Assembly: GCA_040900375.1 (NCBI GenBank)
Contig: JBBDZC010000003.1
Span: forward strand, 586-64,585
Direction: 5' to 3'
Length of the DNA: 64,000 nt
Source of the DNA: Candidatus Anderseniibacteriota bacterium
GTDB lineage: Bacteria > Patescibacteriota > Andersenbacteria > UBA10190
The notes beneath the pieces were generated by a model. It ran no database searches and was not told the DNA's origin. It saw nothing but the letters and a program-made list of their open reading frames with translations. How positions within the stretch are numbered: the first letter of the stretch is position 1; every line of letters begins with the position of its first letter. The translations under genes and the position numbers were made by a program. This document shows positions 11,526 through 34,659 of this stretch, piece by piece.

Positions 11526-11540
11526 CAGCTAAGGAAAATT

Positions 11541-11649
11541 GACTCTTCGACTCGCGCAAGCTCCACCCTGAAGGGTGGAGATAAGCGCGGCTCAGAGTCA
11601 ACCCTGAGCAAGCCACGGCCTTTAGACCGTGGAGTCGAATGGGTTGACA
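11541..11649 (+). repeat. copy 1 of a ~109-bp multi-hairpin repeat family
   Basis: GACTCTTCGACTCGCGCAAGCTCCACCCTGAAGGGTGGAG...CCACGGCCTTTAGACCGTGGAGTCGAATGGGTTGACA. Near-identical copies occur at 19324-19434 (+), 23749-23857 (-) and 30453-30563 (-). Confidence 0.85.
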
Positions 11650-13923: not shown

Positions 13924-13935
13924 GAGCAGAATAGT

Positions 13936-15201: not shown

Positions 15202-15220
15202 AAAAATTGTCTGTGTCTCC

Positions 15221-16405
15221 TTACCCACGCTCTTCTTGTAATACTGGCACGAGCCCCATGGCAAGTTTGAAAGTAAGCAACGCAATATCGCGGCCGGCCT
15301 GGGGGTGATCGAGCGGTGTTAAGGCGCGTGCCAGTTCATGGCGTAGATATTCGTGCTCAAGTAAATCAGTCAGGCTTCGTAAGAAAAGATTTCGACCTAA
15401 ATTTGCAGGATCCAGCACCCGCGCCGCGCCCGCCCGCTCATAAATTTGCGCATTGAGACGCTGATGATCATAAGCTGCTCCTGGCAAAGGAATAAGCAGA
15501 CTAGGTTTTCTCAACCGGGTAAGCTCGGCAAGCGTTGTCGCCCCTGCTCGCGAAACAACAATATCTGCCGCCGTCATCGCTTCAATAACCGTATCCGTTA
15601 AATAAGGATAGGCTTTGTAAAATTCCTTGCGGGATGACGATTCTAAGAGTTCATTAGCAACAGTCGTAATTTTTGTAAAATGATTATCGCCCGTGATATG
15701 AATAATGCCCGCCTGAAGAATTAACTCGGGTAAGACCTGAAGCAAGACCTCATTGAGCGCTAGTGCCCCTTGGCTTCCGCCAACTACAAGAATTACCATG
15801 TCACTTACTTTAAAGCCAAAGGCTTGTTTGGCTTCAGCTACGGAAACTCTCCCAAACTCATGGCGCACCGGTGTGCCAGTAACGAAGGTTTTATGCTGGT
15901 AACGGCTCATCTCTTCGCGCGTTGCTGCAAAGCCCACCGTGATCGCGGCTGCAAACCTCGCTGCCAAGCGGTTTGCTAAGCCAGATACGGCATCCGATTC
16001 GTGCAGGAGAAAAGGAATGCGATAGAAAGCTGCAGCTATGAGGACAGGAATACTGCCGTAACCACCCTTACTAACAATGACGTCTGGCATGATCTTCCAC
16101 ATCAGGTAGAGCGCCTTGACAATACCTACTGGTAGACGTCCGAGCATATCAAAAAAAGTTAAATGAGAGGCATAACGACGCAACTTTCCTGAAGGAACAT
16201 GATAGGCCGCCACATCATAATGTTTAAAAAAGGTCCGAGTTTTATCATCGACAATACCGATAAAGAACAGATCGAGTTTTGTCGGCTCTATTCTCTCCGG
16301 TAAAGAATCCTTTTGTTCCAGGTAGACCGTCCGCAACGATTCAATAATTGGTTCGAAGGGAATCAGGTGTCCCCCTGTTCCACCACCAGTAAGCACAATT
16401 CTCAT
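15221..16405 (-). CDS. murG: undecaprenyldiphospho-muramoylpentapeptide beta-N-acetylglucosaminyltransferase
   Basis: MRIVLTGGGTGGHLIPFEPII at the N-terminus and the GT28 C-terminal domain. Confidence 0.9.
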   Translation of the reverse strand: MRIVLTGGGTGGHLIPFEPIIESLRTVYLEQKDSLPERIEPTKLDLFFIGIVDDKTRTFFKHYDVAAYHVPSGKLRRYASHLTFFDMLGRLPVGIVKALYLMWKIMPDVIVSKGGYGSIPVLIAAAFYRIPFLLHESDAVSGLANRLAARFAAAITVGFAATREEMSRYQHKTFVTGTPVRHEFGRVSVAEAKQAFGFKVSDMVILVVGGSQGALALNEVLLQVLPELILQAGIIHITGDNHFTKITTVANELLESSSRKEFYKAYPYLTDTVIEAMTAADIVVSRAGATTLAELTRLRKPSLLIPLPGAAYDHQRLNAQIYERAGAARVLDPANLGRNLFLRSLTDLLEHEYLRHELARALTPLDHPQAGRDIALLTFKLAMGLVPVLQEERG

Positions 16406-16574
16406 ACGTTAATCATACGTTTATTTGTGCGGGAAATGAAACGGCCTTCGCATCTTACGGTAGAGTATGCAAAGGATGTAATGAAGCCTCCCCCGCGGCC
16501 AGGCCGCGGGGTATCAGGGCGGCTGCGTTGCCTAAGGAGTCGGCTCCGCCGATTCCTTTCAGAACCCCTTCCAT

Positions 16575-16616
16575 CCCCGCCGCTAGCGGCGGGGTATTCA
16601 CGGGGTGCAATAAACT
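16575..16616. repeat. 42-nt GC-rich palindromic element (CCCCGCCGCTAGCGGCGGGG + TATTCACGGGGTGCAATAAACT) in the murG-ftsW spacer
   Basis: A perfect 9-bp-stem palindrome. The same 42 nt (3 mismatches, reverse orientation) recurs at 30108-30149 inside a GT2 coding sequence. Confidence 0.7.
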
Positions 16617-16648
16617 TTTTTTACTTACCACTCTTGCCGGTCCCCGTC

Positions 16649-17773
16649 CTAGGTTTCTCGGGCGTACTTGGAAATATTCAACAGAATACCTGAAGCAAAT
16701 AACATGCTGACCAAGGAAGTGCCGCCATAACTTATAAAGGGCAAAGGAATGCCTGTGAGTGGCGTCACCGCTAAAATTGAACCAATATTAATAAATACCT
16801 GAATACTGATCCAAGAAGTAATGCCGCATGCCAGCAGTCGGCCAAAGAGATCAGGTGCCCGATGCGCAATTATATAACCCCGATAAGCAATCACTAAAAA
16901 GACAGCAATAATGAACAAAGAACGAATGAGACCGAGCTCCTCGGCAATGATCGCAAAAATTGAATCGCCTGCCGGCTCCGGCAGATAATGGTATTTTTGC
17001 CGGCTCCGGCCAAAGCCCAATCCCCACATTCCCCCAGTGCCTACAGCCAGCAGGGCCTGGTTAATCTGGTAACCAATGCCTTGCGGATCTAATTCGGGAT
17101 GAAGGTACACCAAAATGCGGGACAAGCGATATGAAGCAGTGTTAAAAAGCAAGATGAACAACGCCACAGCGGCCCCAGCAATCAATGTTAGATGCGTAAT
17201 TTTAAAACCAGCAATAAAGACCATGGCCCCGGCAATCGCCACAATACTAAAGAGAGTGCCAATGTCTGGTTGCATCACAATCAATCCAGTAATAATGCCC
17301 GTGATAATCAGAAAAGGCACAACACTCTTTCTGAAGTCATGAATATCCTCTTTTTTACGCTCAAGTAAAGCGGCCAAGTAAACAATAAAGGCTAGCTTAG
17401 TAATTTCTGTCGGTTGGATAGTTATAGGACCAAGGCTAATCCAGCGCGCGGCGCCTCCATATGCAAATTGCAGTCCCGGGATAAAGACCATCACCAAGAG
17501 GATGAGCGACAAAAGGAGTCCTGGCAAAGCCAGGAGGCGCCACTTCCTATAGGGAACATAAAAACCAAAAAGAAAGGCCACTAAACCCGAGGAACCGCCA
17601 AAAAAGAGTTGATGCTTTAAAAAAGCATAAATATCCCCACGAAAACGCTCAGCGATAACAGAGGAGGCAGACGTGATCATCATCATGCCGAAAAGCGTAA
17701 GGCCAATAATACAGAGCAATAAAAGAGTATCAGCAGACTGGCGTGAGGAGCTAGCCATAGTAAAATCCATCAT
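16649..17773 (-). CDS. ftsW: SEDS family peptidoglycan glycosyltransferase FtsW/RodA
   Basis: 374 aa, 10-TM SEDS-type protein in the conserved murD-ftsW-murG position. Confidence 0.85.
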   Translation of the reverse strand: MMDFTMASSSRQSADTLLLLCIIGLTLFGMMMITSASSVIAERFRGDIYAFLKHQLFFGGSSGLVAFLFGFYVPYRKWRLLALPGLLLSLILLVMVFIPGLQFAYGGAARWISLGPITIQPTEITKLAFIVYLAALLERKKEDIHDFRKSVVPFLIITGIITGLIVMQPDIGTLFSIVAIAGAMVFIAGFKITHLTLIAGAAVALFILLFNTASYRLSRILVYLHPELDPQGIGYQINQALLAVGTGGMWGLGFGRSRQKYHYLPEPAGDSIFAIIAEELGLIRSLFIIAVFLVIAYRGYIIAHRAPDLFGRLLACGITSWISIQVFINIGSILAVTPLTGIPLPFISYGGTSLVSMLFASGILLNISKYARET

Positions 17774-17829
17774 ACGTGATTGTCTGGTCCCCGGTAAAGC
17801 GCCGGCGTGTCTGCCCAGGGCCCTACCGA

Positions 17830-19221
17830 CTAGAGCATAGCGACACTTGCCTTAAACTGGTCGCCCCGATCGAACTCATGTTGAAATAGACCAAAGCTGG
17901 TAGCCGCCGGAGAAAGCAGAACGACGTCGCCGGGTTCTGCGACCGCCTGTGCTTGGGTGACTGCCTCGGCCATAGTGTTGACGGTGAACACGGGAGGTGG
18001 ACTAGCAAATTCACCGACAATTTGTTCCCGGAGGCGGGGTGTGGCATCGCCGGGCAAGAAAATGAGGGCGCGGATCATCACCTGACTCTCAACGCGCGCC
18101 AATTCTTCAAATCGTAGCTTCTTATCGCTCCCGCCTAAAATATGAACAATATGTTTAGTACCCAGGGCGCGGGTTGCCGCAATCGTCGCGTCTGGCATGG
18201 TTGCCGCAGAATCATTGATATAGGTTACTCTGTCCACTACCCGTACCTTTTCTAATCGATGCGCTAGTCCTTGTAAATTACTAACATTGAGTTGAATAGA
18301 AGCAATAGGAATATTACTCATAAAGCCCAAAAGGATTGCTGGTAAAACATTCCGGCGCTCGTGATCACTGGTAAGTTTAAGACTATCCAAGGGAAAGAGG
18401 GTCCCGCCGCCCCGTTTAAGCAACACGGTTACCATGCCACGATCAACACAAATTCCTTCATCCGGTATCTTGTTAGTGAGGCTGTACCAATAGACCTGCC
18501 CCAAACCATTACCCGCCCATTGGCGGAGGCGCTCATCATCTGCGTTAAGCAGGACTCGATCTTCGCGTCGTTGGTAACGAATAATAATTTTCTTAGTCTT
18601 GATATAGTCTTCAAAAGAATCGTATGTATTAAGGTGGTCGCGATAAATAGATGTCACCACCGCGGTGCGCGGACTAATATTATGGTCAGCTAAGGCTTCT
18701 AAACGCCAGCTCGAGAGCTCAAAAACAACCAGTGAATCATGCCGGATGGAAGACAAGGAACCTAACGGAGAGTGACGGTCATCACCTACAGTAATAGTTG
18801 AGGGATACTTAATCTGCAGCAAATGAGCGATCGCATGCACGGTGGTGGATTTACCCTTTGAGCCGGTCACACCAATAATATTTTTAGTGGGGCAAAATTG
18901 AAAGAAGAGGCTACTATCCATCTCGATTGGTACATTTGCTTGGCGGGCTAGTTCGAGGTATTTGGATGTGCGGGGGACACCCGGATTGCGGATAATCAGA
19001 TCAGTCGAGACAAAGTCTTCTTCTCGGTGTTCTCCTAAAACATAGCGTACGTTACGAAAATGCTGTAAAGCAGTTAACGTTGAACGTAGTTCGGCGTCTG
19101 TTTTTAGATCCGTGACGGTAATCCGGGCCTTTCTTTCCACCAGCCAGGCAATGGTGCCAGCCGCTCCGCCATGGAGTCCAAGTCCCATCACTGTTACTTT
19201 TTTCCCTTCCAGGTCTAACAT
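17830..19221 (-). CDS. murD: UDP-N-acetylmuramoylalanine--D-glutamate ligase
   Basis: KVTVMGLGLHGGAAGTIAWLVERKARITVTD and the Mur ligase core GVTGSKGKSTTV. Confidence 0.9.
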   Translation of the reverse strand: MLDLEGKKVTVMGLGLHGGAAGTIAWLVERKARITVTDLKTDAELRSTLTALQHFRNVRYVLGEHREEDFVSTDLIIRNPGVPRTSKYLELARQANVPIEMDSSLFFQFCPTKNIIGVTGSKGKSTTVHAIAHLLQIKYPSTITVGDDRHSPLGSLSSIRHDSLVVFELSSWRLEALADHNISPRTAVVTSIYRDHLNTYDSFEDYIKTKKIIIRYQRREDRVLLNADDERLRQWAGNGLGQVYWYSLTNKIPDEGICVDRGMVTVLLKRGGGTLFPLDSLKLTSDHERRNVLPAILLGFMSNIPIASIQLNVSNLQGLAHRLEKVRVVDRVTYINDSAATMPDATIAATRALGTKHIVHILGGSDKKLRFEELARVESQVMIRALIFLPGDATPRLREQIVGEFASPPPVFTVNTMAEAVTQAQAVAEPGDVVLLSPAATSFGLFQHEFDRGDQFKASVAML

Positions 19222-19323
19222 AGAAATTCATCCTTATAAGTCCCTGGTGATAACAAGACCTCCTATGTCTTATACATACCTTACAACAAAGAAGTGCCGG
19301 GACGGAAACTGTTTATCTAGTTT

Positions 19324-19434
19324 GACTCTTCGACTCGCGCAAGCTCCACCCTTCAGGGTGGAGATACGCGCGGCTTTAGAGTCAACCCTTAAGCAAGCCA
19401 CGGCCTTTAGACCGTGGAGTCGAATGGGTTGACA
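19324..19434 (+). repeat. copy 2 of the ~109-bp multi-hairpin repeat, inside the murD-mraY spacer
   Basis: About 93% identical to copy 1. The differences fall at hairpin loops (TGAA to TTCA, CTCAG to CTTTAG, TGAG to TTAAG). Confidence 0.85.
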
Positions 19435-19500
19435 GGTGATTGCCTGCTGCCAAAATCCTGACCTTGAGTTTACTAAAGACGCTGTTTGCTCATACAAGAA

Positions 19501-20577
19501 CTAGGGTACTATTTCTCCTCGGCCAATCAGGCCAATGACCAACCCGACGCCGGCGCTTACGGCTGAAACAATCCAAAACCTCATTGTTACCTTTGTCTCT
19601 GGCCAACCCAAGGCCTCAAAATGATGGTGCAAGGGGGTAGATAAAAATATTTTGCGATTGAATAGTTTTTTAGAGACAGTTTGGATAATAACCGAAGCTG
19701 ATTCCAGCACTAACGGAAAGGCAATAACCGGTAAAACTAAAACAGAATTAGTTAACATTGCAATTACCCCCAACGTAGTGCCTAAACTCATGGCGCCCGT
19801 GTCACCCATAAAGAATCGCGCGGGATAAACATTAAACCACAAAAACGCCAATAAAGATCCACTAATAGCGGCACAGAACATTGCTAACTCAATCTTACCT
19901 ATAGCAAAAGCTAGAGCAGTATAGGCAGCAAAACAGAAAGCCACAATCCCGCCCGCTAAACCATCAAGTCCATCTGCTTCATTCACCGAAAAAGCCGTTG
20001 CCACAATCACGAGCATGAATAAAGGAATATACCACCAACCAATTTCTAGATCAGTGACGCCTGGAATATGAAGAATGCTCCACTCTAGTTTGAAGAAGAA
20101 CCACCACGCGCCAAAAGCCGCGACTACCGTATACAGAATTAATCGTTGCCTCATCTGTAATCCTCCGCCCTGCGGCCCAATTTTATGGACATTAAAGTAA
20201 TCATCAATCAGACCCACAAGCGCCGATGCCACCAAGGCCCCGAGCGGGAGGAGAGTTTGCTTGCGTGTCAAGAAATTGAGCGATTCAATCAATGGGACAT
20301 TCAACACTAAAGCCAGCAGAGAAAATAAAAGAGCCAGAAATAAAACAGTCCCCCAGATGATAATGCCACCACCTACGGGCGTGCCTGCTTTACGAGCATG
20401 GAGCGTGGAGTAAATTGGTGTATCGCCATCGTTTCGAATGCTTTTACCGAAACGATACTTATAGAGGTAATGAGTCAGAAACGGTGTTAAAGCCACCGCT
20501 GTCAGGAAAGTAATGGTGGCGATACTAATAACTCGGGTGACATTGAGCACTAAAAGAGGGTCGGAAAACCTGATCAT
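19501..20577 (-). CDS. mraY: phospho-N-acetylmuramoyl-pentapeptide transferase
   Basis: GLIDDYFNVHKIGPQGGGLQMRQRL shows the MraY family DDxxN / aspartate-rich motifs. Confidence 0.9.
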   Translation of the reverse strand: MIRFSDPLLVLNVTRVISIATITFLTAVALTPFLTHYLYKYRFGKSIRNDGDTPIYSTLHARKAGTPVGGGIIIWGTVLFLALLFSLLALVLNVPLIESLNFLTRKQTLLPLGALVASALVGLIDDYFNVHKIGPQGGGLQMRQRLILYTVVAAFGAWWFFFKLEWSILHIPGVTDLEIGWWYIPLFMLVIVATAFSVNEADGLDGLAGGIVAFCFAAYTALAFAIGKIELAMFCAAISGSLLAFLWFNVYPARFFMGDTGAMSLGTTLGVIAMLTNSVLVLPVIAFPLVLESASVIIQTVSKKLFNRKIFLSTPLHHHFEALGWPETKVTMRFWIVSAVSAGVGLVIGLIGRGEIVP

Positions 20578-20648
20578 AGTCGATAAGTGATAGTTTGTTC
20601 ATCTAGCATACGGCAAAAAAATGTTGCTTTACAGAGTACTCTTTGACT

Positions 20649-21590
20649 TCAGAGCCAGGCATAGTTGCGCCAAATCCATTCCACCAGCGTCTTCATGTCT
20701 TGAAACCGTGCTTCACTACCCAGGATAACTGCCCCAATTCTCTGACCTTCGGGACCAGATGTAAACAGCGCTAGATTTTCCCCAGCTTCAACAGTATAGC
20801 CCGTTTTAGCAGCAATAATCGGTAAATAAGTACCGAGCAGTTGATTAGTAGTCTTATAGGTACGCCGCCCCCCTTCTTGGGTCGCTAGTTGCCCTTGCTT
20901 TTGGGAGAGCAAGGGCTGCAAAAGTGGATCGGCAAAAACCAAAGTAAGTAGTCGCCGAATATCTTGCGCCGTAGAATATTGTTCACCACCAGAAAGACCA
21001 GTAGCATTAGCTAATTTTGTATTGAGAAGTCCTTGGGCAAGCGCGTACTGGTTAGCATAATGAACAAAATTTTCTTCCGAGCCAAAACCCGCTACCGCTA
21101 AGCTCACCATCGCATCATTCGCTGAAGCAATTAACCCCGCCGCCAATAACTCTTGCACACTGGCATGTTCACCCGGCAGGAGACGAATATGTGCCCCTGA
21201 ACGCTGGATCGCTTGCGCCTCGGGAGGAATAAGAATCATTGATTCAGCCGATAGCTGGTCGCGGATCACCAAAACCGAGAGTAGCTTACTTAAAGAAGCC
21301 ACCGGTCGCCTGGTATCTACCTCCTTAGCATAAAGTTCTTTACCGGTCGCCACATCCCAAACCAAAGCTGCCTCCGCCGATAACACCACATCTACTGCCT
21401 CCCCTTCCCGAACTGGCTCATGTAAGCTCCTGTCCGGACCTGTTTCCTCATTTGCCCTAACTACACCTTGCTTATCTATCCCCGCTATCCGGGGCACAGG
21501 GGGGGCCATCAGTAATTCCCGACAAGAAAGGGCTGGGTATTGGGTTATAGCGCAGCTAATAGCCAGGAGAGTGATCTCAATAAATGTCAT
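20649..21590 (-). CDS. D-alanyl-D-alanine carboxypeptidase (peptidase S11, PBP5-like)
   Basis: The SxxK (SLSK), SxN (SAN) and KTG (AKTGYT) motifs are present in the correct order. Confidence 0.8.
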   Translation of the reverse strand: MTFIEITLLAISCAITQYPALSCRELLMAPPVPRIAGIDKQGVVRANEETGPDRSLHEPVREGEAVDVVLSAEAALVWDVATGKELYAKEVDTRRPVASLSKLLSVLVIRDQLSAESMILIPPEAQAIQRSGAHIRLLPGEHASVQELLAAGLIASANDAMVSLAVAGFGSEENFVHYANQYALAQGLLNTKLANATGLSGGEQYSTAQDIRRLLTLVFADPLLQPLLSQKQGQLATQEGGRRTYKTTNQLLGTYLPIIAAKTGYTVEAGENLALFTSGPEGQRIGAVILGSEARFQDMKTLVEWIWRNYAWL

Positions 21591-21660
21591 GTCCTATGAT
21601 AATTAGTTGACTGGTGGTGAGGCTAGTAATTGGGTAATTTTATCGTGACTTTGCCGCGAG

Positions 21661-22494
21661 TCAAAATGCCTGCCGTGAGGTACCTGATAGTTGGGCACTA
21701 TGCGGCAACGGCGCACCGCGGTATTTCCAGAAATACTTAAATGCTGAGCGAATATGTTCGCGCGTGGCCCAGTTAGTGATAATACCCATAAGTGTGCCCT
21801 GACTCGTGCGCTGATGAAAATGGGAAAAACGAGCTTGCGGTACATAAGTTACGCGCCATCCGCCTTGCCAGAAGCGGCGACACCAATCCACATCCTCAAA
21901 GTAAAGAAAGAAACGTTCATCCATGCCACCTATTACTTTAACCGCGGCTGCCCGCAGCGCCAGACAAGATCCCATGAGCCAGTCTACGTCTTGCACTTGT
22001 CGGTGATCAAAGTCTTTCATCAGAAAATGATTAATTTCTTTCTTGCCTAAACGAGTTTGCCCTAGCCACGTGCGCCGGTAAAGAATGGTGAGGAGTTTAT
22101 AAAAATGGTAACAAGAGTATTGCACTTTGCCACTCGGCGAGAGTAACTGTCCCCCTGCCACCCCCACATCCGGATGCGCCTGAAGAAACTGTGTGAGAAT
22201 CATAACAGAACCCGGTAGAGCAATAACATCGGGATTCAGCACTAAGTAGAACTGACCTTGGGCCTGGGCTAGCGCCTTATTAACTCCCGCCGCCAATCCC
22301 ATATTTTTAATATTATCAATCACCATAATTTCTGGGAAATCGGCACGGAGGAACGAGACGCTAGTGTCAGATGATCCATTATCAACCACGATAATTTCCG
22401 TGCGAGGAGGTAGTTTTTGTGTGAGCAATGACTCAATACAGGCTTGCGTGAGCGCTCCGGTATTATAGTTAACAATGATAATAGATAGCTTCAT
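21661..22494 (-). CDS. glycosyltransferase family 2
   Basis: MKLSIIIVNYNTGALTQACIESLL...VVDNGSSDTS...LNPD are classic GT2-A motifs. Confidence 0.8.
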   Translation of the reverse strand: MKLSIIIVNYNTGALTQACIESLLTQKLPPRTEIIVVDNGSSDTSVSFLRADFPEIMVIDNIKNMGLAAGVNKALAQAQGQFYLVLNPDVIALPGSVMILTQFLQAHPDVGVAGGQLLSPSGKVQYSCYHFYKLLTILYRRTWLGQTRLGKKEINHFLMKDFDHRQVQDVDWLMGSCLALRAAAVKVIGGMDERFFLYFEDVDWCRRFWQGGWRVTYVPQARFSHFHQRTSQGTLMGIITNWATREHIRSAFKYFWKYRGAPLPHSAQLSGTSRQAF

Positions 22495-22577
22495 GGGTAT
22501 TAGTTAGTTATACCAAGGACGCGGGCGTAAGTAGTAAAACCCCCCTAGCCTATACTCGTTTTGCTCGTGACACAAGC

Positions 22578-23588
22578 TTAGATTTGTTTGAGCACTCCCT
22601 CTCGGCGCTTTCTGTTCATCCGCGGTAAACCAGAAATTACTTCCGGCCATATCTTAAATAGAGAAGGATACAAGAGACTAAGCCCTAAAAAAACTAGACC
22701 ACGCCCGATGATCGCGGGGGAATATTGAAAGATCGTCATGGGGGTGGCATTTTTAGCAATCATCCAGATCCAGTTACGCAGACTGTACCGCGTGCGCGGA
22801 CTCTGAAGACGACGATAAATCAGACGAGGACGTGATCCCCAGTTAAATATTCCGCGCCGACCAAGGGTCCGAGCGTGATGACCAATCAAGACAGGAACAT
22901 AGTGCACTTTCCATCCTGCACGTTGCAGGCGCCAGCCCAAGTCAACATCTTCTTTATACGCGAAGAAGTCTCTGTCATAAAATTCATTACGACCATGTGC
23001 TACTTGTTTAAGCGCCTGCAAGCGATACAGACTGCAAGCGCCAGTTGTAGCAGTTATGGTTGCTCTTGTCGCAAACTGTCCTTTATCTTCCTCGAAGGCC
23101 CCGCGCTCTTTACCATTCAAAGCATAGGTTAAAACAATGCCGGCGGAATCAATCATGGACTTATTATTGATTATCTCCTGCCGCAGTAACTTACCCTGCA
23201 CGGCTCCTAAAGTGGGATCACCTTCCAAAGCTTGAATGAGCACTTGTACCCCTGGCCAGTGTAGGGTGACATCAGGGTCACACGTTAATACATACGGTGT
23301 GGTGCAGCGAATAAATCCTTCATTATGCCCCTGGGCAAATCCAAGATTACGCGGTAAGGCCACAACCTGGGCCCGGGGGAGAAGCTTGCGCACCGTAGCA
23401 ATTGAGTCATCAGTTGAGTGATTATCAATATATCTAATGATGACGTCCGCCAGCGGAACAACGTGTAAAGCGGGCAACGTCTGGGCCAAGACAGAAGAGC
23501 TGTTCCAGCCCACAATTTGAATAGTGAGTTGCGCTGTCATAGTGAAAGTATTGCTTACGTTATACCAGACTACCGTGTCAAGCTCCAT
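22578..23588 (-). CDS. glycosyltransferase family 2
   Basis: LTIQIVGWNSS...IDNHSTDDS...NLGFAQGHNEG...CDPD are GT2 motifs. The true start is possibly MTAQLTIQ at about 23540. Confidence 0.75.
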   Translation of the reverse strand: MELDTVVWYNVSNTFTMTAQLTIQIVGWNSSSVLAQTLPALHVVPLADVIIRYIDNHSTDDSIATVRKLLPRAQVVALPRNLGFAQGHNEGFIRCTTPYVLTCDPDVTLHWPGVQVLIQALEGDPTLGAVQGKLLRQEIINNKSMIDSAGIVLTYALNGKERGAFEEDKGQFATRATITATTGACSLYRLQALKQVAHGRNEFYDRDFFAYKEDVDLGWRLQRAGWKVHYVPVLIGHHARTLGRRGIFNWGSRPRLIYRRLQSPRTRYSLRNWIWMIAKNATPMTIFQYSPAIIGRGLVFLGLSLLYPSLFKIWPEVISGLPRMNRKRREGVLKQI

Positions 23589-23589
23589 C

Positions 23590-23725
23590 TTTAGAGCTTG
23601 GTGAATGAGGAGTTATTATACTCGGGTGACACCGGGGGGAGGACCCGCCCTTAAGCAGCACCAAGCCTTGCGACTGCGGCCGCAGGGGCGGGGCAGCCGC
23701 TCGATATTTATATTCGCCAAAATCT
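23590..23725. repeat. second copy (degenerate ends) of the ~180-bp TIR element seen at 11344-11525
   Basis: Shares AGAGCTTGGTGAAT.A.GA.TTATT.TACTCGGGTG at one end and CCGCTCGATA.T at the other, with a different GC-rich core. Confidence 0.5.
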
Positions 23726-23748
23726 CTAAAGCTAAGACAAGCGCCTAA

Positions 23749-23857
23749 GTCAACCCATTCGACTCCACGGTCTAAAGACCGTGGCTTGTTCAGGGTTGAC
23801 TCTAAAGCCGCGCTTATCTCCACCCTGAAGGGTGGAGCTTGCGCGAGTCGAAGAGTC
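23749..23857 (-). repeat. copy 3 (inverted orientation) of the ~109-bp multi-hairpin repeat
   Basis: The reverse complement matches copies 1 and 2 over the full length. Lies in the divergent GT2 / murF intergenic region. Confidence 0.85.
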
Positions 23858-23921
23858 AATGAAAGCCAGCAATGGCTGCGCGGCGCTTTTCGTGGATAAG
23901 GAAAAGATGTAGCCTTAGAGT

Positions 23922-25541
23922 ATGTCCTTCGCCATTTATTTGCCCTGTACGGTGGGCGCCATTCTTGTTTCTTTGCGGATCCTAGCGCAAATTGAGCTAT
24001 GGCAGCGCAAAGAATACCGCTGGGATCGATTACGCTCCCTGCTCTTTAGTGAGGAAAATCGTGTCTTGTTTCCATCCGGATTACTTGTCGGCATGATTCT
24101 TTTGGATATCGGCTGGCTGGCCTCAATCATGGGTCAAGACGCCGGCGCCAATATGTTAGGCTGGAGTAGTTTATTTTTGTTTCTCGGACAAGACATCGTA
24201 CGCATTCGCGCCCGCGGTCTCTATCGGCCCGAGTTTACCCTTAGGGCTCTCCTTATTCTTGGGTTAGCTGCGCTGTTGACCCTTCTCTACATTCTGACTG
24301 TCTTTATTCCTGAAACACAATTAGCCCTCCAGTGGGCCACGCTTGTAGTTTTTATGCCGGTGATCACTGCCAGCAGTGTCATCGGTGTTAATATTCCCGC
24401 TAAACTACGCCAGCGAAGTATTATTGCCCGCGCCGCTAGCTGGAGAGCTCGCCTAACAAAACTTACTGTCCTTGGCATCACCGGCAGTTTTGGTAAAACA
24501 TCTACCAAATATTTTCTCTCGCAATTGTTTAGTAATCGTTATGACGTTGCGACCACCACTGACCACCGTAATTCAGCCCTCGCTGTGGCTTATGACATGC
24601 TTGCTCAACTGACACCTAAAACTAAGATATATATTGCCGAAATGGGTGCCTATCGTCGCGGCGAGATCAAGGAACTAGCTGAACTTACTCGTCCCAAAAT
24701 TGGTCTAATTACCAACATTGGCAATCAACATGCTGCGCTCTTTGGTTCCTCAACCCAGATACTGCGCACCAAGTGGGAATTAATTGAGACTCTACCCGTC
24801 GGCGGTACTGCGGTTCTCAATGCCAATGATGAGCGGCAAGTTGAACAAGCCAAAGGTATCAGTCAAAAAATAATCTGGTTTTCCACTCGCCCCGAGAGAA
24901 AGGCTAATCTTTCCCAGCCGGTGACAGTTTTTGTTGACCAAGTAAAAATTGCTCCCCGCTCACTTGCCTGTATACTGCACCTTCATAAAATAAAAAAACC
25001 TATCACCGTTAACTTACTAAGTGATGCTATGCTGACAAGTTTAGTAGCCGCTGCCGCAGGCGCTCTCGCCCTTGGCCTGCCACCAAAAGAAATTTTTGCT
25101 CGCATTCCTACTCTGCATTCCTATGCTCGGACAATGGAACTAAGAAACAATAGATTTGGGGCCACGATTATTGATGACAGCTACTCGGCCAATGAGCCAG
25201 GCGCGCAGAATGCTATCGAGCACCTCGCTCGTTTTGCCGAAAATAAAAAGATTATCATCTTGGCGCCCCTAATCGAATTAGGTCCCGAGGCAGCGGCTGT
25301 CCATCACCGTCTGGGAGCTATCTTAGCCGCCAGTCGGGCGCAAGTGTATATTACGGCTAAAACTTATCTTAATTCTATTATTGAGGGTGGTCGCCAAGTA
25401 AATAAAGATTTTAAGCCCCACGTCTATAGTCAGCCCCGTTTATTAGCCCAGGTGTTACGGCAACGGGTTACGGCTGACTCGGTAGTTTTAATTGAAGGGA
25501 GAGTACCCGAGATTGTGCGCATGAGCGTGCTTAACCCCTAA
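23922..25541 (+). CDS. murF: MurF-like Mur ligase with N-terminal 4-TM membrane domain replacing the usual N-terminal domain
   Basis: P-loop LGITGSFGKTSTKYF and the MurF-type C-terminal IIDDSYSANEPGAQNA. The first ~170 aa are four predicted TM helices, with only ~25 aa between the last TM and the P-loop. Confidence 0.7.
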   Translation: MSFAIYLPCTVGAILVSLRILAQIELWQRKEYRWDRLRSLLFSEENRVLFPSGLLVGMILLDIGWLASIMGQDAGANMLGWSSLFLFLGQDIVRIRARGLYRPEFTLRALLILGLAALLTLLYILTVFIPETQLALQWATLVVFMPVITASSVIGVNIPAKLRQRSIIARAASWRARLTKLTVLGITGSFGKTSTKYFLSQLFSNRYDVATTTDHRNSALAVAYDMLAQLTPKTKIYIAEMGAYRRGEIKELAELTRPKIGLITNIGNQHAALFGSSTQILRTKWELIETLPVGGTAVLNANDERQVEQAKGISQKIIWFSTRPERKANLSQPVTVFVDQVKIAPRSLACILHLHKIKKPITVNLLSDAMLTSLVAAAAGALALGLPPKEIFARIPTLHSYARTMELRNNRFGATIIDDSYSANEPGAQNAIEHLARFAENKKIIILAPLIELGPEAAAVHHRLGAILAASRAQVYITAKTYLNSIIEGGRQVNKDFKPHVYSQPRLLAQVLRQRVTADSVVLIEGRVPEIVRMSVLNP

Positions 25542-25649
25542 TGAACCAGGGACTTTACCCTTCTCGCCTCATTAGCATTGTCGGCAGCCAGAGCAGAGTA
25601 AATAAGACCCAAGCTTGCAAGTTGAGCCTAAACATGTATAAAGCGCTGT

Positions 25650-26897
25650 ATGCCTCGTCATGAAAATATGTCGCCTATTCTCACCGCTCTCTCGCCCAAT
25701 ACTGAATCAGATGACCGAGTCCGAGCCTGGCAAATACTACAGCGCCCTTGGCGCTGGCATGATGCAAACCAGGTAGCGTCAGTGGAAAAGAAAATATCAG
25801 CATTATTTAATCATCTACCAGCCGTCACCGTCAGCTCGGGACGCCGGGCAATGAGCTATGTCCTTGAAGCTTTCGATATTGGCCAAGGTGATGAAGTAAT
25901 AATCCAAGCCTTTACATGCCTAGCCGTACCGGCAGCCGTGATGTGGACAGGGGCTAAGCCAATATACGCCGATATTGAAGAAACAACTTTCAATTTCGAT
26001 GTAGTTGACATTAGTCGCAAGCTTACCCCTCGCACCAAAGCAATTATTATTCAGCACACGTTTGGTATTCCTGGTCCCCTGGCCACACTCCAAGTTCTCG
26101 CCGCCAAAAATAATATTATTCTAATTGAGGATTGTGCTCATGCTTTGGGCGCTACCTATAACACTGCCCCTGTAGGTACCCAAAGTGATGCTGCCATCTT
26201 AAGCTTCGGCCGCGATAAAGCTTTATCCTCCGTCTTTGGCGGAGCCGTCGTCAGCCGCCACCCACATATTATCGCCCGCATCCGCACTATCCAGACCGCC
26301 TTACCCTATCCGCCTGCTTGGTGGATAATTCAACAATTACTGCACCCTCTCTTCCTGGCAGTGATTAAGCCGCTATATTTCTCCGCCAGCATAGGAAAAA
26401 TTATTTTGGTAATCCTCCAGCGCTTAAGTATCCTTAGTCTGGCAGTTACCCGCTCCGAGAGAGTCGGCGCCCAACCCAATCATGCACGCTGGCGTTATTC
26501 ACCGGCCCTCGCTTATCTTCTCGCGCAACAACTCGATAAACTGGAACGCTTCACTGCTCATCGTCGTAAGATTGCGGCTACCTACGCGAGAGCCCTATCA
26601 TATTCCCCTTCGTTTCCGCCTGCAGCTCAACCAAGTTGGTTGCGCTTTCCCGTCGTCGTTACAGATCGGGCAGCCGCCGTCGCCGCCGCCCGGGCAGCCC
26701 ATATCATGTTAGGTGACTGGTATCAAGATGTTATCATGCCCACAGTTGAAAAGTCGCAAATCAATTATCATCCAGGTTCATGCCCACGCGCCGAAAGTAT
26801 CGCTACCAAAATTATTAATTTACCAACATATCCCGCCTTAACTACTAACCAAGCCGAATGGATTAGTAAAATTGTTGCTCCATATGTCCGACATTGA
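25650..26897 (+). CDS. DegT/DnrJ/EryC1/StrS family PLP-dependent sugar aminotransferase
   Basis: VTVSSGRRAMSYVLEAFDIGQGDEVIIQAFTCLAVPAAVMWTGAKPIYADIEETTFNFD and SFGRDKAL (PLP-lysine region). Confidence 0.8.
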   Translation: MPRHENMSPILTALSPNTESDDRVRAWQILQRPWRWHDANQVASVEKKISALFNHLPAVTVSSGRRAMSYVLEAFDIGQGDEVIIQAFTCLAVPAAVMWTGAKPIYADIEETTFNFDVVDISRKLTPRTKAIIIQHTFGIPGPLATLQVLAAKNNIILIEDCAHALGATYNTAPVGTQSDAAILSFGRDKALSSVFGGAVVSRHPHIIARIRTIQTALPYPPAWWIIQQLLHPLFLAVIKPLYFSASIGKIILVILQRLSILSLAVTRSERVGAQPNHARWRYSPALAYLLAQQLDKLERFTAHRRKIAATYARALSYSPSFPPAAQPSWLRFPVVVTDRAAAVAAARAAHIMLGDWYQDVIMPTVEKSQINYHPGSCPRAESIATKIINLPTYPALTTNQAEWISKIVAPYVRH

Positions 26898-27912
26898 GGT
26901 TAAACTTATCGTCAGTCAGACAGCATGGGACGCTTTTGTGCTAAGACTCCTGCCGAATACCTTCCTTCAAAGTTGGCAATGGGGACAATTCCAGGAGCAA
27001 CAGGGCGAAATAGCACTCTATCTCGGACTATATCGCGGGCCAGAGCAAATTGGAGCCGCCCTCGTGATCTTAGTCAAGGCCCGCCGCGGTTATCACTACA
27101 TTATTCCTCACGGCCCCCTTTGGCTCTCCCCAGCTGATGTTCGCGGTAGTATTCAAGTAATTGCGACTTTTTTGCGCGCCCATGCCACCACTACTGGGGC
27201 AGTGGGGCTACGAATTGCCCCACTCCTATTGGCTACTCCTGCCCACTACGGCATATTTCGGGAACTTGGTTTTCGGGCAGCGCCACTGCATATTCATACC
27301 GAACTTACCTGGGTACTTGATATTAACGAGTCGCTTGCCCTGCTGCTTAAAGCAATGCGTAAAACTACTCGTCAGGCTATTGCCAAAGCGGCGGCCGCCG
27401 GCGTCACAACAGAAATCATTACCGATGTGATTGGCATAAACCGATTTTGGCCACTCTATGAACAAACCCGTCAACGTCATAAATTTGTTCCTTTTAGTCA
27501 GGAATTTCTTCGGCAACAATTCACAGTTTTCGCTTCCACCGGTAATGCCTATCTAGTCATGGCCCGTTATCGGGGCAGGGATATCGCCGGCGCTATCCTA
27601 ATACAGTACGGCAACACCGTCTTTTATCATCATGGCGCGTCAGTTAATCTCGCCGCTTCGGTATCTGGTGCCCAGTTCACCCAATGGCAGGCGATCCAGG
27701 AAGCCCAGCGGCGGGGGGCTACCCGTTATAACTTTTGGGGGATTGCTCCTGCCGAGCAACCAGACCATCCCTTTACCGGTATTACCGTCTTTAAGAAAGG
27801 TTTTGGTGGCTTTGCTCTTGACTATCTGCATGCCCAAGACTTGCCGCTGACACGAGCTTACTGGAAGTTGTGGGCAGTCGATCATTGGCGTAAATACCGC
27901 CGAGGATTTTAG
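26872..27912 (+). CDS. FemAB-family aminoacyl/peptidyl transferase (GNAT-fold, FemX-like)
   Basis: AWDAFVLRLLPNTFLQSWQWGQFQEQQGEIALYLGLY...ILIQYGNTVFYHHGAS...NFWGIA is a Fem/FemX-type architecture. Overlaps DegT by 26 nt; the likely start is MSDIEVK at about 26884. Confidence 0.7.
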   Translation: MLLHMSDIEVKLIVSQTAWDAFVLRLLPNTFLQSWQWGQFQEQQGEIALYLGLYRGPEQIGAALVILVKARRGYHYIIPHGPLWLSPADVRGSIQVIATFLRAHATTTGAVGLRIAPLLLATPAHYGIFRELGFRAAPLHIHTELTWVLDINESLALLLKAMRKTTRQAIAKAAAAGVTTEIITDVIGINRFWPLYEQTRQRHKFVPFSQEFLRQQFTVFASTGNAYLVMARYRGRDIAGAILIQYGNTVFYHHGASVNLAASVSGAQFTQWQAIQEAQRRGATRYNFWGIAPAEQPDHPFTGITVFKKGFGGFALDYLHAQDLPLTRAYWKLWAVDHWRKYRRGF

Positions 27913-30452: not shown

Positions 30453-30563
30453 TGTCAACCCATTCGACTCCACGGTCTAAAGGCCGTGGCTTGCTTAAGG
30501 GTTGACTCTAAAGCCGCGCGTATCTCCACCCTGAAGGGTGGAACTTGCGCGAGTCGAAGAGTC
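30453..30563 (-). repeat. copy 4 (inverted orientation) of the ~109-bp multi-hairpin repeat
   Basis: The reverse complement is about 97% identical to copy 2. Lies between a GT2 start and a truncated NIF3 fragment. Confidence 0.85.
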
Positions 30564-30601
30564 AAGTGCATTACTATACGAACATGCTACCACTGACCTA
30601 A

Positions 30602-32004: not shown

Positions 32005-34659
32005 TTAGTTCCAAAGATTATTAATCAAAGTAAGAATGCGCTCCACTCGATCTTCCCAGCTATGATGATGTGCTTGGGCAATTCGTTCTACTTTCCGGTG
32101 TTGCGGGTTCTTTAAAAATTGTTCTCCCTGCTGGATAAACTCCTCTGGATTAGTAGCATAGCCAATATCTTGGCTATATTCCTTGAGCTCGGGCAAGCCG
32201 GTTACCAGTAGCGGTTTGCCAGTCGCCATAAATTCCCAAAATTTAAGCGGAAAACTGGCTTCATTATAGCGGCTTAACCGATATGGAATAATACATATAT
32301 CAAAGTTTGCCACATAGCTAGGCACGACTTGCCGTTTCACCGGGCCGATTAAATGAATATTAGGCAATGACTTTATTTTTGCTAAAATTTCGGGACTGCG
32401 GTCAACAATTGGTTCGCCAATAAAGATAAACTGCCAAGCCGCCCGGCGAGTTGCCACCGTATACAAAAGATCAAAATCAATCTTATAGGAGTCAAGCGCT
32501 CCCACTGAGCCAAAAATAGGGTGGGGTATCGTTGCCAGGCGAGCCTGTATCGGGGCGGGTGCAGTCGCGGCAGAAAGGTTAAAAAACGCCTTCACATCAC
32601 CGGCGTTAAGGACTAGATGAATGTTAGTATGCTGTTGTTGTTTGAGCGTTAAAAGTTTTTTGGAAGTGACGGTTACTAAATCAGCACGCTGGATAATAGC
32701 GTGCTCTTCCTCGACCACCCGTTTAGGGTTACGATCCACCCCCGCTTGGGCCGCATGATCATCAACACAATCATAAATAACTTTAGCGGTTCTAAATGCT
32801 GATAAATATTCAGCTGCTTCTGTATCGTAAATCCAGACGAGCGTGGCCGCCTTCTTGAAGTGCAGTAAGCGCAGACACAGCAACACACTCGGTCGGTTAA
32901 GCCAATGGTTAATGGTAGCAATCCATTTTATTTCCCGTGAGCCGGGTAGTAAATTCCATTGCGACTTTATATAAAGATAGTTGCTTTTCTTTTCTAACCA
33001 GAAGATTCTCGTTAGTAGCTTGAAAATGCTGTGTGGTTGTCGCCAATTATTTAACAAGAAACGAAGAATCCAAATTCGCGGTTCTACATATAAAACAGGA
33101 TAACGTTGCGCTACGCGCGACATCATGTGCTGGCGATTAGTCCACGAAGGCTGATCATATGCCGCCCCGGCAAAACACACCACCTGAAAACTATTTTTTA
33201 CTAGCACCGCTGTCCGTGATCGTCTTGTAAAAGCTGCCGGGAGAAGATTACTGCGCCTCACTTCCCGGATACTATATAACAGAAGCAATACCAATACTCC
33301 TATCCTTATACCCAAACCCGGCCCACTTAAGAGCCAGATAACCGCGATCCCCAAGATGCCTAACAGCAAAGCTAATTTATTGGTTAGTAACCTAATACCA
33401 TAATACCGCCGGGCAATAACAACCATGGCGAGGTAGGCTACGGCTGCACCACTGAACACAGCGACCGCGGCCCAGAGCGGATCAGGATAGACAAGATATA
33501 GCCAACCCATGGTCGCAGCCGAGACAGCGGTCAGCAGTCCATAAATCCCGGCTCGTACATGTGGCTTATCAGCGGCGACAAAAACGCTACTAGTGCCAAT
33601 ATCGAGTAGCGAATACAAGAAGAAGGCGAGGGTCATAATATAAATCAGCGGTTCCGCAGGCAGGTAGTTTACGCCAATAATATAAGTCAATATTTCTGGT
33701 GTAAAAAATAGGAGCAGGAGTGTTAGAGTGGTCATAAGCATGAAAACGCGACGCATGTTACGGGTGACGACATGCTTAAACTGCTCTATTTGACCTGCAT
33801 ATAGAGAGCTCATCCATGATAAATTTACTTCCGACAGTGCCATTGCAATAATCGTCAGTCGCGCGCCAAAAGTTAAAGAGACATTCAAGTAACCTAACTG
33901 GTCAGACGCCAATACTCCACCCAAGGCTAAAAGCGGCAGGCGTTGCCAGACCACAAAAAATATGCGGGCGAGATACATAAAGGCGCCAATCTTCATTACT
34001 CGCCGGCTATAACGTAAAAGCTCTGACCAGGACGGAAAAGCTAACGCCTGACGTAAATTGCGCCGGACAATAATACCCAGCAAAACCACCATGATTACTG
34101 TCGTGACAATCACGGCATAGAAGAATCCTTGGGTTCCCAGAAATAAAATAAAAAGACCAAAAACAACAATGTTAATGGCCGCGGTCAGGATTTGCACCAA
34201 GTACAAACTATAAAACTTCTTCATACCCGTGAGTGTTGCCCCGAGCACGTCTTGGAGGCCCTGGAGAACTAACACGGCAGCAAAAAGCTGCAAATAGGGG
34301 GTGATTTCTGGCTTGCCGTATATGGAGACGGCAATCAGATTGGCTAAGGCTAGTAATCCAAGAGACAGGGGAACTGTGACAAGCTGGCGGGTGATTTGTG
34401 ATGCCCAAAAGATCTTACCAATTTCTTGCTTACTCTTGAGAATAGCAATTTCACGAATGGCGCCATCAACAATCCCTAAGTGTTGGGAAACACCAATCAC
34501 TCCCCCAATCGACATGACCAGTCCTACCAGACCAAACTGTTCTGGTGAAAGCAGGCGGACGATGATAATGCTCTGGCCAATGCCCAGCGCCGTGGTAATG
34601 GCCTTGGTAAAAAGAGACAAAAATTGGATGCGGGCAAGGCTCATACCACAAGTAAGCAA
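32005..34659 (-). CDS. fusion protein: Wzx-like oligosaccharide flippase (about 14 TM) + C-terminal GT-B glycosyltransferase domain
   Basis: The N-terminal ~480 aa are polytopic, with a polysaccharide-biosynthesis / MOP flippase-like start (LFTKAITTALGIGQSIIIVRLLSPEQFGLVGLV). The C-terminal ~400 aa are a soluble GT-B-like domain. Confidence 0.6.
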   Translation of the reverse strand: MLTCGMSLARIQFLSLFTKAITTALGIGQSIIIVRLLSPEQFGLVGLVMSIGGVIGVSQHLGIVDGAIREIAILKSKQEIGKIFWASQITRQLVTVPLSLGLLALANLIAVSIYGKPEITPYLQLFAAVLVLQGLQDVLGATLTGMKKFYSLYLVQILTAAINIVVFGLFILFLGTQGFFYAVIVTTVIMVVLLGIIVRRNLRQALAFPSWSELLRYSRRVMKIGAFMYLARIFFVVWQRLPLLALGGVLASDQLGYLNVSLTFGARLTIIAMALSEVNLSWMSSLYAGQIEQFKHVVTRNMRRVFMLMTTLTLLLLFFTPEILTYIIGVNYLPAEPLIYIMTLAFFLYSLLDIGTSSVFVAADKPHVRAGIYGLLTAVSAATMGWLYLVYPDPLWAAVAVFSGAAVAYLAMVVIARRYYGIRLLTNKLALLLGILGIAVIWLLSGPGLGIRIGVLVLLLLYSIREVRRSNLLPAAFTRRSRTAVLVKNSFQVVCFAGAAYDQPSWTNRQHMMSRVAQRYPVLYVEPRIWILRFLLNNWRQPHSIFKLLTRIFWLEKKSNYLYIKSQWNLLPGSREIKWIATINHWLNRPSVLLCLRLLHFKKAATLVWIYDTEAAEYLSAFRTAKVIYDCVDDHAAQAGVDRNPKRVVEEEHAIIQRADLVTVTSKKLLTLKQQQHTNIHLVLNAGDVKAFFNLSAATAPAPIQARLATIPHPIFGSVGALDSYKIDFDLLYTVATRRAAWQFIFIGEPIVDRSPEILAKIKSLPNIHLIGPVKRQVVPSYVANFDICIIPYRLSRYNEASFPLKFWEFMATGKPLLVTGLPELKEYSQDIGYATNPEEFIQQGEQFLKNPQHRKVERIAQAHHHSWEDRVERILTLINNLWN

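Follow-up and report, generated by a model that had tools for sequence, protein, structure and literature searches.

A MurF-type ligase with a membrane domain in place of its N-terminal domain, encoded with DegT-family and FemX-fold proteins in Candidatus Andersenbacteria

The Mur ligases are textbook soluble enzymes of the cytoplasm and long-standing antibiotic targets. The window analysed here, a 64,000-nucleotide stretch from a metagenome-assembled genome of Candidatus Andersenbacteria (candidate phyla radiation, CPR, or Patescibacteria), encodes a ligase of the MurF type that is part of a membrane protein. Positions are numbered within the window. The gene is the first of three consecutive genes on the plus strand, and its product is called TM-MurF below. 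The second gene encodes a pyridoxal-phosphate (PLP) enzyme of the DegT family (DegT), and the third a protein with the fold of FemX, predicted to be an aminoacyl-tRNA-dependent transferase (Fem). All three open reading frames (ORFs) were found as a preliminary description of this DNA had given them. TM-MurF is 100% identical to an NCBI protein encoded on a 191,595-bp contig of a Candidatus Andersenbacteria metagenome-assembled genome. The coordinates of the features are collected in Table 1.

From residue 165 onwards, TM-MurF aligns with the MurF enzymes of E. coli and P. aeruginosa, starting at residue 84-86 of these two proteins. The murF model TIGR01143 is by far the top NCBIfam model for the protein, with a score of 209.8 bits; the other models that matched were murD (63 bits), cyanophycin synthetase (50-52 bits), murC (40 bits), murE (38 bits) and MurT (17 bits). 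The central and C-terminal Mur ligase domains were each detected above cut-off. Both ligase motifs quoted in the preliminary description were recovered: residues 185-195 read GITGSFGKTST, and residues 418-425 read DDSYSANE. A sequence search of the PDB returned exclusively MurF chains down to an E-value of 1e-20, with MurT at about 7e-4. The AlphaFold2 model (predicted local distance difference test, pLDDT, 93.6; predicted template modelling score, pTM, 0.90) was compared with known structures using Foldseek, in which MurF matched with E-values of 1e-24 to 1e-20 and MurE and MurC with about 1e-15. By every measure of sequence and of predicted structure, residues 165-539 are MurF-like.

The closest known enzymes are the canonical MurF proteins with structures 1GG4 (E. 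coli), 4CVK and 4CVM (P. aeruginosa), 4QF5 (A. baumannii) and 3ZL8 (T. maritima). TM-MurF has in common with them the P-loop central domain, the linker helix and a C-terminal domain that carries DDSY(N/S)AN, and its gene is linked to ddl, mraY and other mur genes in relatives. In the alignments it differs in some C-terminal motifs, having PL(I/L)ELG for GDMxELG and EGRxP for KGSR. Another difference lies at the N-terminus. Domain 1 of canonical MurF is a soluble, UDP-binding domain of about 80 residues, whereas TM-MurF has a five-helix domain of about 160 residues instead. The soluble domain is regarded as missing because the TIGR01143 match begins only at profile position 60, corresponding to residue 167, and leaves positions 1-59 unmatched. 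A Pfam scan of TM-MurF gave no hit to PF01225. The results support a ligase of MurF type that lacks the canonical N-domain and has a membrane domain in its place, as had been proposed from the sequence at the outset.

Residues 1-160 of TM-MurF are hydrophobic. The AlphaFold2 model has helices at residues 3-29, 52-69, 73-98, 107-127 and 134-177, so that the membrane domain contains five helices and not the four that had been claimed. The numbers of Lys and Arg residues per loop are 6, 3 and 7 on one face of the domain and 0, 0 and 0 on the opposite face. This one-sided distribution indicates that the N-terminus is outside and the C-terminus inside, which would place the ligase part in the cytoplasm. 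The last helix, residues 134-177, is unbroken and joins the membrane domain to the ligase. An alignment of 33 TM-MurF homologues, having an overall identity of just 35-48%, reveals two motifs in the membrane domain that rank among the most conserved residues of the whole protein. The first, starting at W27, is invariant. In the second, starting at G99, R102 and P103 are invariant and G99 and T106 nearly so.

A fusion of this kind could in principle be an artifact, in which annotation or assembly has joined an upstream membrane-protein ORF in frame to a truncated murF. The unusual architecture itself and a weak Shine-Dalgarno-like sequence before ATG 23922 are all that points in this direction, and the probability of such an artifact is negligible. 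The identical fusion recurs across several phyla, in assemblies that number in the hundreds and were made independently, and the helix linking the two parts is modelled with high confidence. The best 120 homologues of TM-MurF are 496-580 residues long and align over 94-100% of the query. Searched against 1.84 billion representatives, a profile built from the N-domain alone matched 769 clusters (50% identity) at an E-value of 1e-3 or better. When clear fragments are set aside, the N-domain is always N-terminal in proteins of about 500-570 residues and fused to a MurF-like ligase; it therefore appears to exist solely as a part of the ligase. The preliminary description had considered a missed start at about position 24430. 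After codon 119 the only in-frame starts are M145 and V147, neither of which yields a canonical N-domain. A mis-joined ORF or a missed internal start is ruled out by the conservation of the fusion, the invariant N-domain motifs and the continuous modelled helix.

The architecture is no peculiarity of one operon. It belongs to a very large family that is named MurF in databases and that includes abundant gut Clostridia, in which the gene lies beside ddl. In a scan of one genome per species, the same architecture was found in Roizmanbacteria, Levyibacteriota and Dojkabacteria. By the matching ligase pattern only, the same scan identified many Clostridia (Christensenellaceae, Ruminococcus, Oscillospiraceae). 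In the Clostridial N-domains, LQLNSYR and KKPLVYT(A)R stand for WQRKEYR and RPxxT, and an hhalign comparison of the CPR and Clostridial N-domains runs from end to end with the motifs in register (probability 87%, E-value 3.9e-6). When the search was seeded with a Ruminococcus sequence, 7,993 of 8,000 candidates matched at an E-value of 1e-20 or better; the search was saturated, and the number is a lower bound. Among the matches listed from this seed, nearly all are about 505-540 residues long. Some clusters comprise anything from hundreds to thousands of proteins, and contigs of 1.5-2.0 Mb encode some of these. Where a database name is given, it is "UDP-N-acetylmuramoyl-tripeptide--D-alanyl-D-alanine ligase" (Oscillospiraceae, Faecalibacterium sp., Ruminococcus sp., Acutalibacteraceae). 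The open-access literature yielded nothing relevant on membrane or transmembrane MurF or on the Mur ligases of CPR bacteria. TM-MurF is thus a widespread variant of MurF, recorded in databases as MurF yet apparently undescribed as a membrane form.

Two further observations concern the distribution of the family. In one very abundant species, with contigs of up to 2.04 Mb, a Porin_4 gene follows TM-murF (locus L071, 11604-12734), which suggests that the architecture is also present in a diderm lineage, possibly Negativicutes. Some contigs with Andersenbacteria-type synteny carry doubtful labels (Saccharibacteria, Woesearchaeota archaeon and one Bathyarchaeia), which are probably placeholders or the result of mis-binning.

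Among the loci with enough downstream sequence, 59 have TM-murF followed by degT and then fem. The trio is of the Andersenbacteria type, without an upstream hydrolase gene, in 29 of these loci; 22 have the hydrolase gene upstream, and the remaining 8 are cut upstream. The loci come from two distant CPR groups. The three genes, whose grouping had been noted at the outset, thus form a tightly packed and conserved set. Overlap between the genes had also been described. In the window it is found between degT and fem, which share 14 nucleotides when Fem starts at ATG 26884, and not between murF and degT, which are 108 nucleotides apart. The junctions in relatives are mostly overlaps of 4-20 nucleotides and otherwise gaps of a few bases. 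Three loci (L103, L138 and L140) have fem with no degT detected; in L103, an unannotated gap of 830 bp lies where degT would be. Locus L130 has the same order with fem only, but is too short to be counted. DegT is dispensable in some lineages that retain Fem. The partnership with DegT and Fem is specific to CPR bacteria and deeply conserved. In a Roizmanbacteria genome, a four-gene form of the module has neighbours that are unrelated to it (genes for a helicase, a ZIP transporter and DsbA) and none that concern glycans, indicating that the module travels with murF and not with glycan genes.

The Fem ORF has possible starts at 26872 and 26884, the latter being the start of an identical 342-residue database protein. 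Its AlphaFold2 model has a pLDDT of 93.5. The best Foldseek matches were FemX of S. aureus (TM-score 0.83 on the query), FemX of Weissella (about 0.80 in both normalisations) and FemA, with TM-scores of 0.77-0.83. The next matches were Sba18 and Sbb17, tRNA-dependent peptide synthases of streptothricin synthesis whose acceptor is an amino sugar. Fem shares the two-lobed, GNAT-like (Gcn5-related N-acetyltransferase) fold with FemX of Weissella viridescens and with FemX and FemA of S. aureus; it has the size of the Weissella enzyme and lacks the coiled coil of FemA. However, its identity to FemX and FemA is just 16-18%, and it scores only 33-55 bits on the curated FemX model, for which the cut-off is 500. 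An invariant His precedes the conserved GAS in Fem, at a site where S. aureus FemX has Tyr. In the Fem proteins of relatives, the FemX model aligns residues of about 15-299 to profile positions 13-305. Homologues of Fem are 50-58% identical and are thus better conserved than the ligase. Residues F303-K304, within FKKGFGG (27790-27810), are invariant in 31 sequences; by their numbering, they may be the counterpart of the Phe-Lys pair with which Weissella FemX handles the tRNA end.

Weissella FemX modifies the UDP-pentapeptide precursor, and a gene order of murF-fem-mraY fits that order of steps. Loci L138 and L140, and L130 as a shorter locus, have no degT but keep fem in the interval from TM-murF to mraY. 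The persistence of fem beside murF in the absence of degT, together with the occurrence of the module apart from glycan genes, speaks for a branched stem peptide rather than for a decorated polymer of the O-antigen kind. The preliminary description had offered two hypotheses. One was an unusual stem-peptide or cross-bridge chemistry, the other the aminoacylation of a 4-amino sugar. Cross-bridge or branch chemistry by way of Fem fits best of the two, given the retention of fem beside murF. The amino-sugar hypothesis is weakened by the glycan-free module of Roizmanbacteria and retains in its favour the amino-sugar acceptor of the next-nearest structures. A search of the literature for FemAB proteins in Patescibacteria gave nothing relevant.

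DegT resembles the sugar aminotransferases PseC, ArnB, QdtB and perosamine synthase in having the PLP-binding large domain with the Schiff-base lysine in an SFxxxK motif. It differs from them in a conserved hydrophobic insertion between its two domains and in a divergent C-terminal domain. The insertion contains a QQLLHP motif, has its hydropathy peak at residues 248-266 and is present in all CPR orthologues aligned; the PDB alignment of DegT with QdtB is interrupted at residues 215-290. The insertion may be a membrane-association element. DegT belongs to none of the curated specificity subfamilies PseC, LegC, ArnB, DesI, WecE and RfbH. The best curated model is PseC, with 141.9 bits against a cut-off of 423.5, and the N-terminal half alone matches.

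On the minus strand of the window, murB, murC, murG, ftsW, murD and mraY span 13045-20577, and an S11 DD-carboxypeptidase gene and two genes for glycosyltransferases of family 2 (GT2) sit between mraY and the divergent intergenic region. TM-murF is thus transcribed divergently from the dcw operon, as had been noted before. The same order of dcw genes is found in about 29 related genomes. The minus-strand dcw operon of the window contains no murE, murF or ddl. The intergenic region has a single weak sigma-70-like match, at 23590-23619. The S11 DD-carboxypeptidase gene (20649-21590, minus strand) is directly upstream of mraY, which is the usual place of murF. In several relatives (L001, 6148-7379; L002, 6939-8190), scpA and scpB lie between this gene and the GT2 genes; they are not present in the window. 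On the 3' side of the trio, convergent genes encode a Wzy_C-like protein, further glycosyltransferases and a protein in which a Wzx-type flippase is fused to a family 4 glycosyltransferase (GT4). The fusion protein (32005-34659, minus strand) has 884 residues, its flippase part having been recognised as Polysacc_synt in relatives, and Andersenbacteria genomes have conserved it at this place 3' of the trio.

No second murF was found among ORFs of at least 150 codons in the window or in about 10 kb of flanking sequence, and about 100 relatives likewise showed none within 10 kb of the gene; TM-MurF is presumably the sole MurF of this genome. The clearest indication of its place in the pathway comes from L115, a CPR metagenome contig with the gene order ruvA-ruvB-murE-pgeF-murC-murB-murA-glmU-hydrolase-TM-murF-degT-fem-dgkA-mraY, continuing with murD-ftsW-murG-(unknown ORF)-ftsA. 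All steps from glmU to murG are represented, and TM-murF is the sole MurF-like gene, situated in its usual place upstream of mraY. Loci L140, L138 and the shorter L130 resemble this mur cluster. As TM-murF fills the murF slot of the L115 cluster, the enzyme most likely carries out the ordinary step of adding D-Ala-D-Ala and does not point to a stem peptide out of the ordinary. Clostridia and related taxa contributed 18 loci in which ddl is directly downstream of TM-murF, and in another abundant species ddl is just upstream and divergent. Some of the ddl-linked loci also have murA or a canonical full-length murE within 10 kb. Synteny thus gives sound, if indirect, support to a role as the housekeeping MurF.

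The murE genes of L115 (2186-3442) and L140 (1450-2700) are themselves unusual. They encode proteins of only about 417 residues that score 367 and 403 bits, against a murE cut-off of 257. The match opens at profile position 87-101 or thereabouts and the P-loop is near residue 50, so that there is neither an N-terminal UDP-binding domain nor a membrane anchor. In the window, the position upstream of pgeF (41542-42156, minus strand), which is occupied by murE in L115, holds an ORF of 595 codons (42153-43940, minus strand) that overlaps the start of pgeF by 4 nucleotides; it has no Pfam or NCBIfam match and is no detectable Mur ligase. A recurrent neighbour of TM-murF is a gene for an alpha/beta-hydrolase of about 240-290 residues, counted in 44 loci directly upstream and usually overlapping by 1-4 nucleotides. 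It is found both in Clostridia, including 17 of the 18 loci with ddl directly downstream, and in CPR bacteria other than Andersenbacteria. The window has no such gene. The best curated matches of the hydrolase, to esterases and lipases, are weak and unspecific.

ORF 23922-25541 is, with a probability that we put at roughly 70%, the membrane-embedded MurF with which the organism adds D-Ala-D-Ala, and Fem and DegT would be CPR-specific partners in the synthesis of the wall precursor. Several observations weigh against this assignment. A domain that defines MurF is absent. The score of TM-MurF is below the curated cut-off of TIGR01143 (209.8 against 288.6 bits), as are the scores of all members of the family (189-246 bits), a part of the deficit being due to the absence of the N-domain. 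Genes for Ddl, MurE and alanine racemase were not found in the window or its flanks (about 75 kb in all), and phmmer searches of the same sequence with Clostridial Ddl, MurE and hydrolase queries gave no match. In Andersenbacteria, the trio is located between the two GT2 genes and the block of Wzy_C, GT2, GT4 and Wzx-GT4 genes. Finally, the module contains no dehydratase or oxidoreductase that would supply a keto sugar, whether in Andersenbacteria, Roizmanbacteria or L115, and the role of DegT is unexplained. An epimerase/dehydratase-family gene is present several kb past the end of the window, about 40 kb from the trio.

The low score, the missing N-domain and the surrounding glycan genes would also be expected if TM-MurF were a paralogue acting outside peptidoglycan synthesis, where it would join DegT and Fem in attaching an amino sugar and amino acids to a distinct lipid-linked glycan. 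The GT2, GT4, Wzx and Wzy-like genes nearby would provide for the synthesis of this glycan. Such a role comes close to the amino-sugar hypothesis of the preliminary description. Enzymes of the DegT family commonly make amino sugars, and Sba18 and Sbb17 aminoacylate one. We nevertheless consider a paralogue of this kind improbable. Members of the family adjoin ddl in Clostridia, the murF position of L115 is filled by TM-murF with no other murF there, the Roizmanbacteria module is free of glycan genes, and the dcw operon of the window has no murF at the customary place. The lack of a keto-sugar-forming enzyme in the module is a further difficulty for a glycan pathway. DegT and Fem, which take the gene position of ddl in Clostridia, were also considered as a substitute for Ddl. 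This was judged unlikely. Since the groups that Fem enzymes transfer to amines are L-aminoacyl groups, they cannot build a C-terminal D-Ala-D-Ala, whose presence in the wall is implied by the S11 DD-carboxypeptidase of the operon.

If TM-MurF is the D-Ala-D-Ala-adding enzyme, its five-helix domain would replace the soluble domain that holds the UDP end of the substrate in other MurF enzymes, with the two invariant motifs, rich in basic and aromatic residues, facing the cytoplasm. In MurE and P. aeruginosa MurF, the pyrophosphate of the substrate lies where the N-domain meets the middle domain (PMC6113224). Because the last helix of the membrane domain runs into the ATP-binding domain, the site for pyrophosphate and N-acetylmuramic acid (MurNAc) would be at the membrane surface, beside MraY, and TM-MurF would make the pentapeptide precursor next to the enzyme that uses it. 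The FemX-fold enzyme would then most likely add a branch amino acid from aminoacyl-tRNA to the product of MurF, before or at the lipid stage, with the DegT-family PLP enzyme as a putative accessory.

The position of this site at the membrane surface also allows for a different substrate. TM-MurF might add D-Ala-D-Ala to undecaprenyl-pyrophosphate-MurNAc-tripeptide, that is, to lipid I or II minus the last two residues. MraY would in that case transfer a tripeptide precursor, and Fem and DegT would act on the same membrane intermediate. The replacement of a UDP-binding domain by a membrane domain with invariant motifs at the cytoplasmic face is compatible with such an acceptor, as are the hydrophobic insertion in DegT and the fact that S. 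aureus FemX, the best structural match of Fem, acts on lipid II. There is a precedent in MurT of the MurT/GatD complex, a Mur-ligase homologue without a UDP-binding N-domain that acts on a membrane-bound precursor and has MurF as its closest relative in structure (PMC6113224). The authors of that study argue that, with MurT on lipid II, an N-domain would clash with the membrane (PMC6113224). MurT differs from TM-MurF, however, in being soluble, in its DUF1727-type C-terminal domain and zinc ribbon, and in its need for GatD; the C-terminal domain of TM-MurF is PF02875, its score on the MurT model is 17 bits, and no gene for GatD or another glutaminase is adjacent.

We regard a lipid-linked acceptor as rather unlikely. 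Pyrophosphate-MurNAc is common to both substrates, and the invariant motifs could equally replace UDP binding. Plain anchoring beside MraY explains the architecture equally well. The order murF-fem-mraY in L115, L138 and L140 mirrors the classical soluble steps, in line with the use of a UDP-linked precursor by Weissella FemX. Moreover, the short MurE of L115 and L140 has lost its N-domain and is yet unanchored, showing that loss of this domain is not specific to lipid substrates. The wider proposal, that in CPR bacteria and much of the gut Clostridia the last stem-peptide step has moved to the membrane and the five-helix domain recognises the undecaprenyl-pyrophosphate end, is accordingly speculative. 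If it were true, the textbook order, in which MraY acts after MurF, would be changed for major bacterial lineages.

The intergenic region upstream of TM-murF holds one of four copies of an intergenic element of about 112 nucleotides, 91-97% identical to one another (11539-11648, minus; 19322-19433, minus; 23749-23859, plus; 30454-30565, plus). The element folds very stably into nested hairpins, with a minimum free energy of about -55 kcal/mol. It matches no Rfam family and was not found in related genomes. The idea that murD and TM-murF share it as a regulatory leader was rejected on these grounds, together with the copy number and the mixed orientations. As its orientation to the flanking genes varies, a genome-specific repeat, like a repetitive extragenic palindrome (REP) or a miniature inverted-repeat transposable element (MITE), is likelier than a leader. 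Elsewhere in the window are genes for two unusual proteins, a VirD4/TraD-like coupling-protein ATPase with a C-terminal CxxC-x17-CxxC domain (8196-9938, minus strand) and a 351-residue protein that has a sigma-70 region-4-like N-terminus and a match to RNA polymerase delta/HARE-HTH (11662-12717, minus strand).

Table 1. Coordinates of TM-murF, its neighbours and associated features (window positions unless a locus is given)
Feature	Position	Strand	Description
TM-MurF gene	23922-25541	+	539 residues; five-helix membrane domain with MurF-type central and C-terminal ligase domains (ORF, domain hidden Markov models, AlphaFold2)
N-terminal polytopic membrane domain	23922-24395	+	Residues 1-158; from hydropathy and AlphaFold2 helices; transmembrane helices at about 3-27, 52-69, 73-95, 107-127 and 134-158; predicted N-terminus outside, C-terminus inside
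Motif W27-Q-x-K-E-Y-R-x-D-R36	24000-24029	+	Invariant in the 33-sequence alignment; cytoplasmic end of first transmembrane helix
Motif G99-x-x-R102-P103-x-x-T106	24216-24239	+	Conserved in the 33-sequence alignment; cytoplasmic loop between third and fourth transmembrane helices
Basic linker helix	24396-24461	+	Residues 159-180, 7 Lys+Arg; continuous with fifth transmembrane helix; corresponds to the domain-1/domain-2 linker of canonical MurF
P-loop GITGSFGKTST	24474-24506	+	Residues 185-195
Mur ligase central (ATP-binding) domain	24477-25052	+	PF08245, 93.9 bits, residues 186-377; above cut-off
Mur ligase C-terminal domain	25134-25499	+	PF02875, 38.6 bits, residues 405-526; above cut-off
MurF-type motif DDSYSANE	25173-25196	+	Residues 418-425; counterpart of DDSYNAN in the alignment with P. 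aeruginosa and E. coli MurF
DegT/DnrJ/EryC1-family PLP enzyme	25650-26897	+	415 residues; PF01041, 217.7 bits in two stretches, cut-off 19.8; start may be M7 (25668)
DegT lysine motif SFGRDK	26202-26219	+	K190 aligns with the QdtB lysine; conserved in CPR orthologues
DegT hydrophobic insertion	26319-26447	+	Residues 224-266; about 48 extra residues between the two domains
FemX-fold aminoacyl-tRNA-dependent transferase (predicted)	26884-27912	+	342 residues; PF02388 (FemAB), 104.1 bits, cut-off 24; Acetyltransf_6
dcw operon context	13045-23588	-	murB, murC, murG, ftsW, murD, mraY, S11 DD-carboxypeptidase, two GT2 genes
Divergent intergenic region	23589-23921		333 bp, between a GT2 gene (22578-23588, minus strand) and TM-murF; holds the repeat copy 23749-23859
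Hydrolase genes upstream of TM-murF	L036:4698-5435; L041:8955-9680; L050:9180-9920; L043:8898-9614; L057:8604-9485; L115:9189-9923

With the MurF-DegT-FemX operon, CPR bacteria have a conserved and uncharacterised addition to the pathway of wall-precursor synthesis. In many bacteria of the candidate phyla, and in abundant gut Clostridia such as those labelled Faecalibacterium and Ruminococcus, TM-MurF appears to be the standard MurF. It bears on the coupling of the soluble to the membrane stages in the synthesis of the wall, and it offers a lineage-specific surface as a target. Since cultivable Clostridia share the architecture, the question is open to work at the bench. The pairing of a FemX-fold enzyme with an unusual DegT protein points to branched or otherwise modified wall precursors in CPR bacteria.

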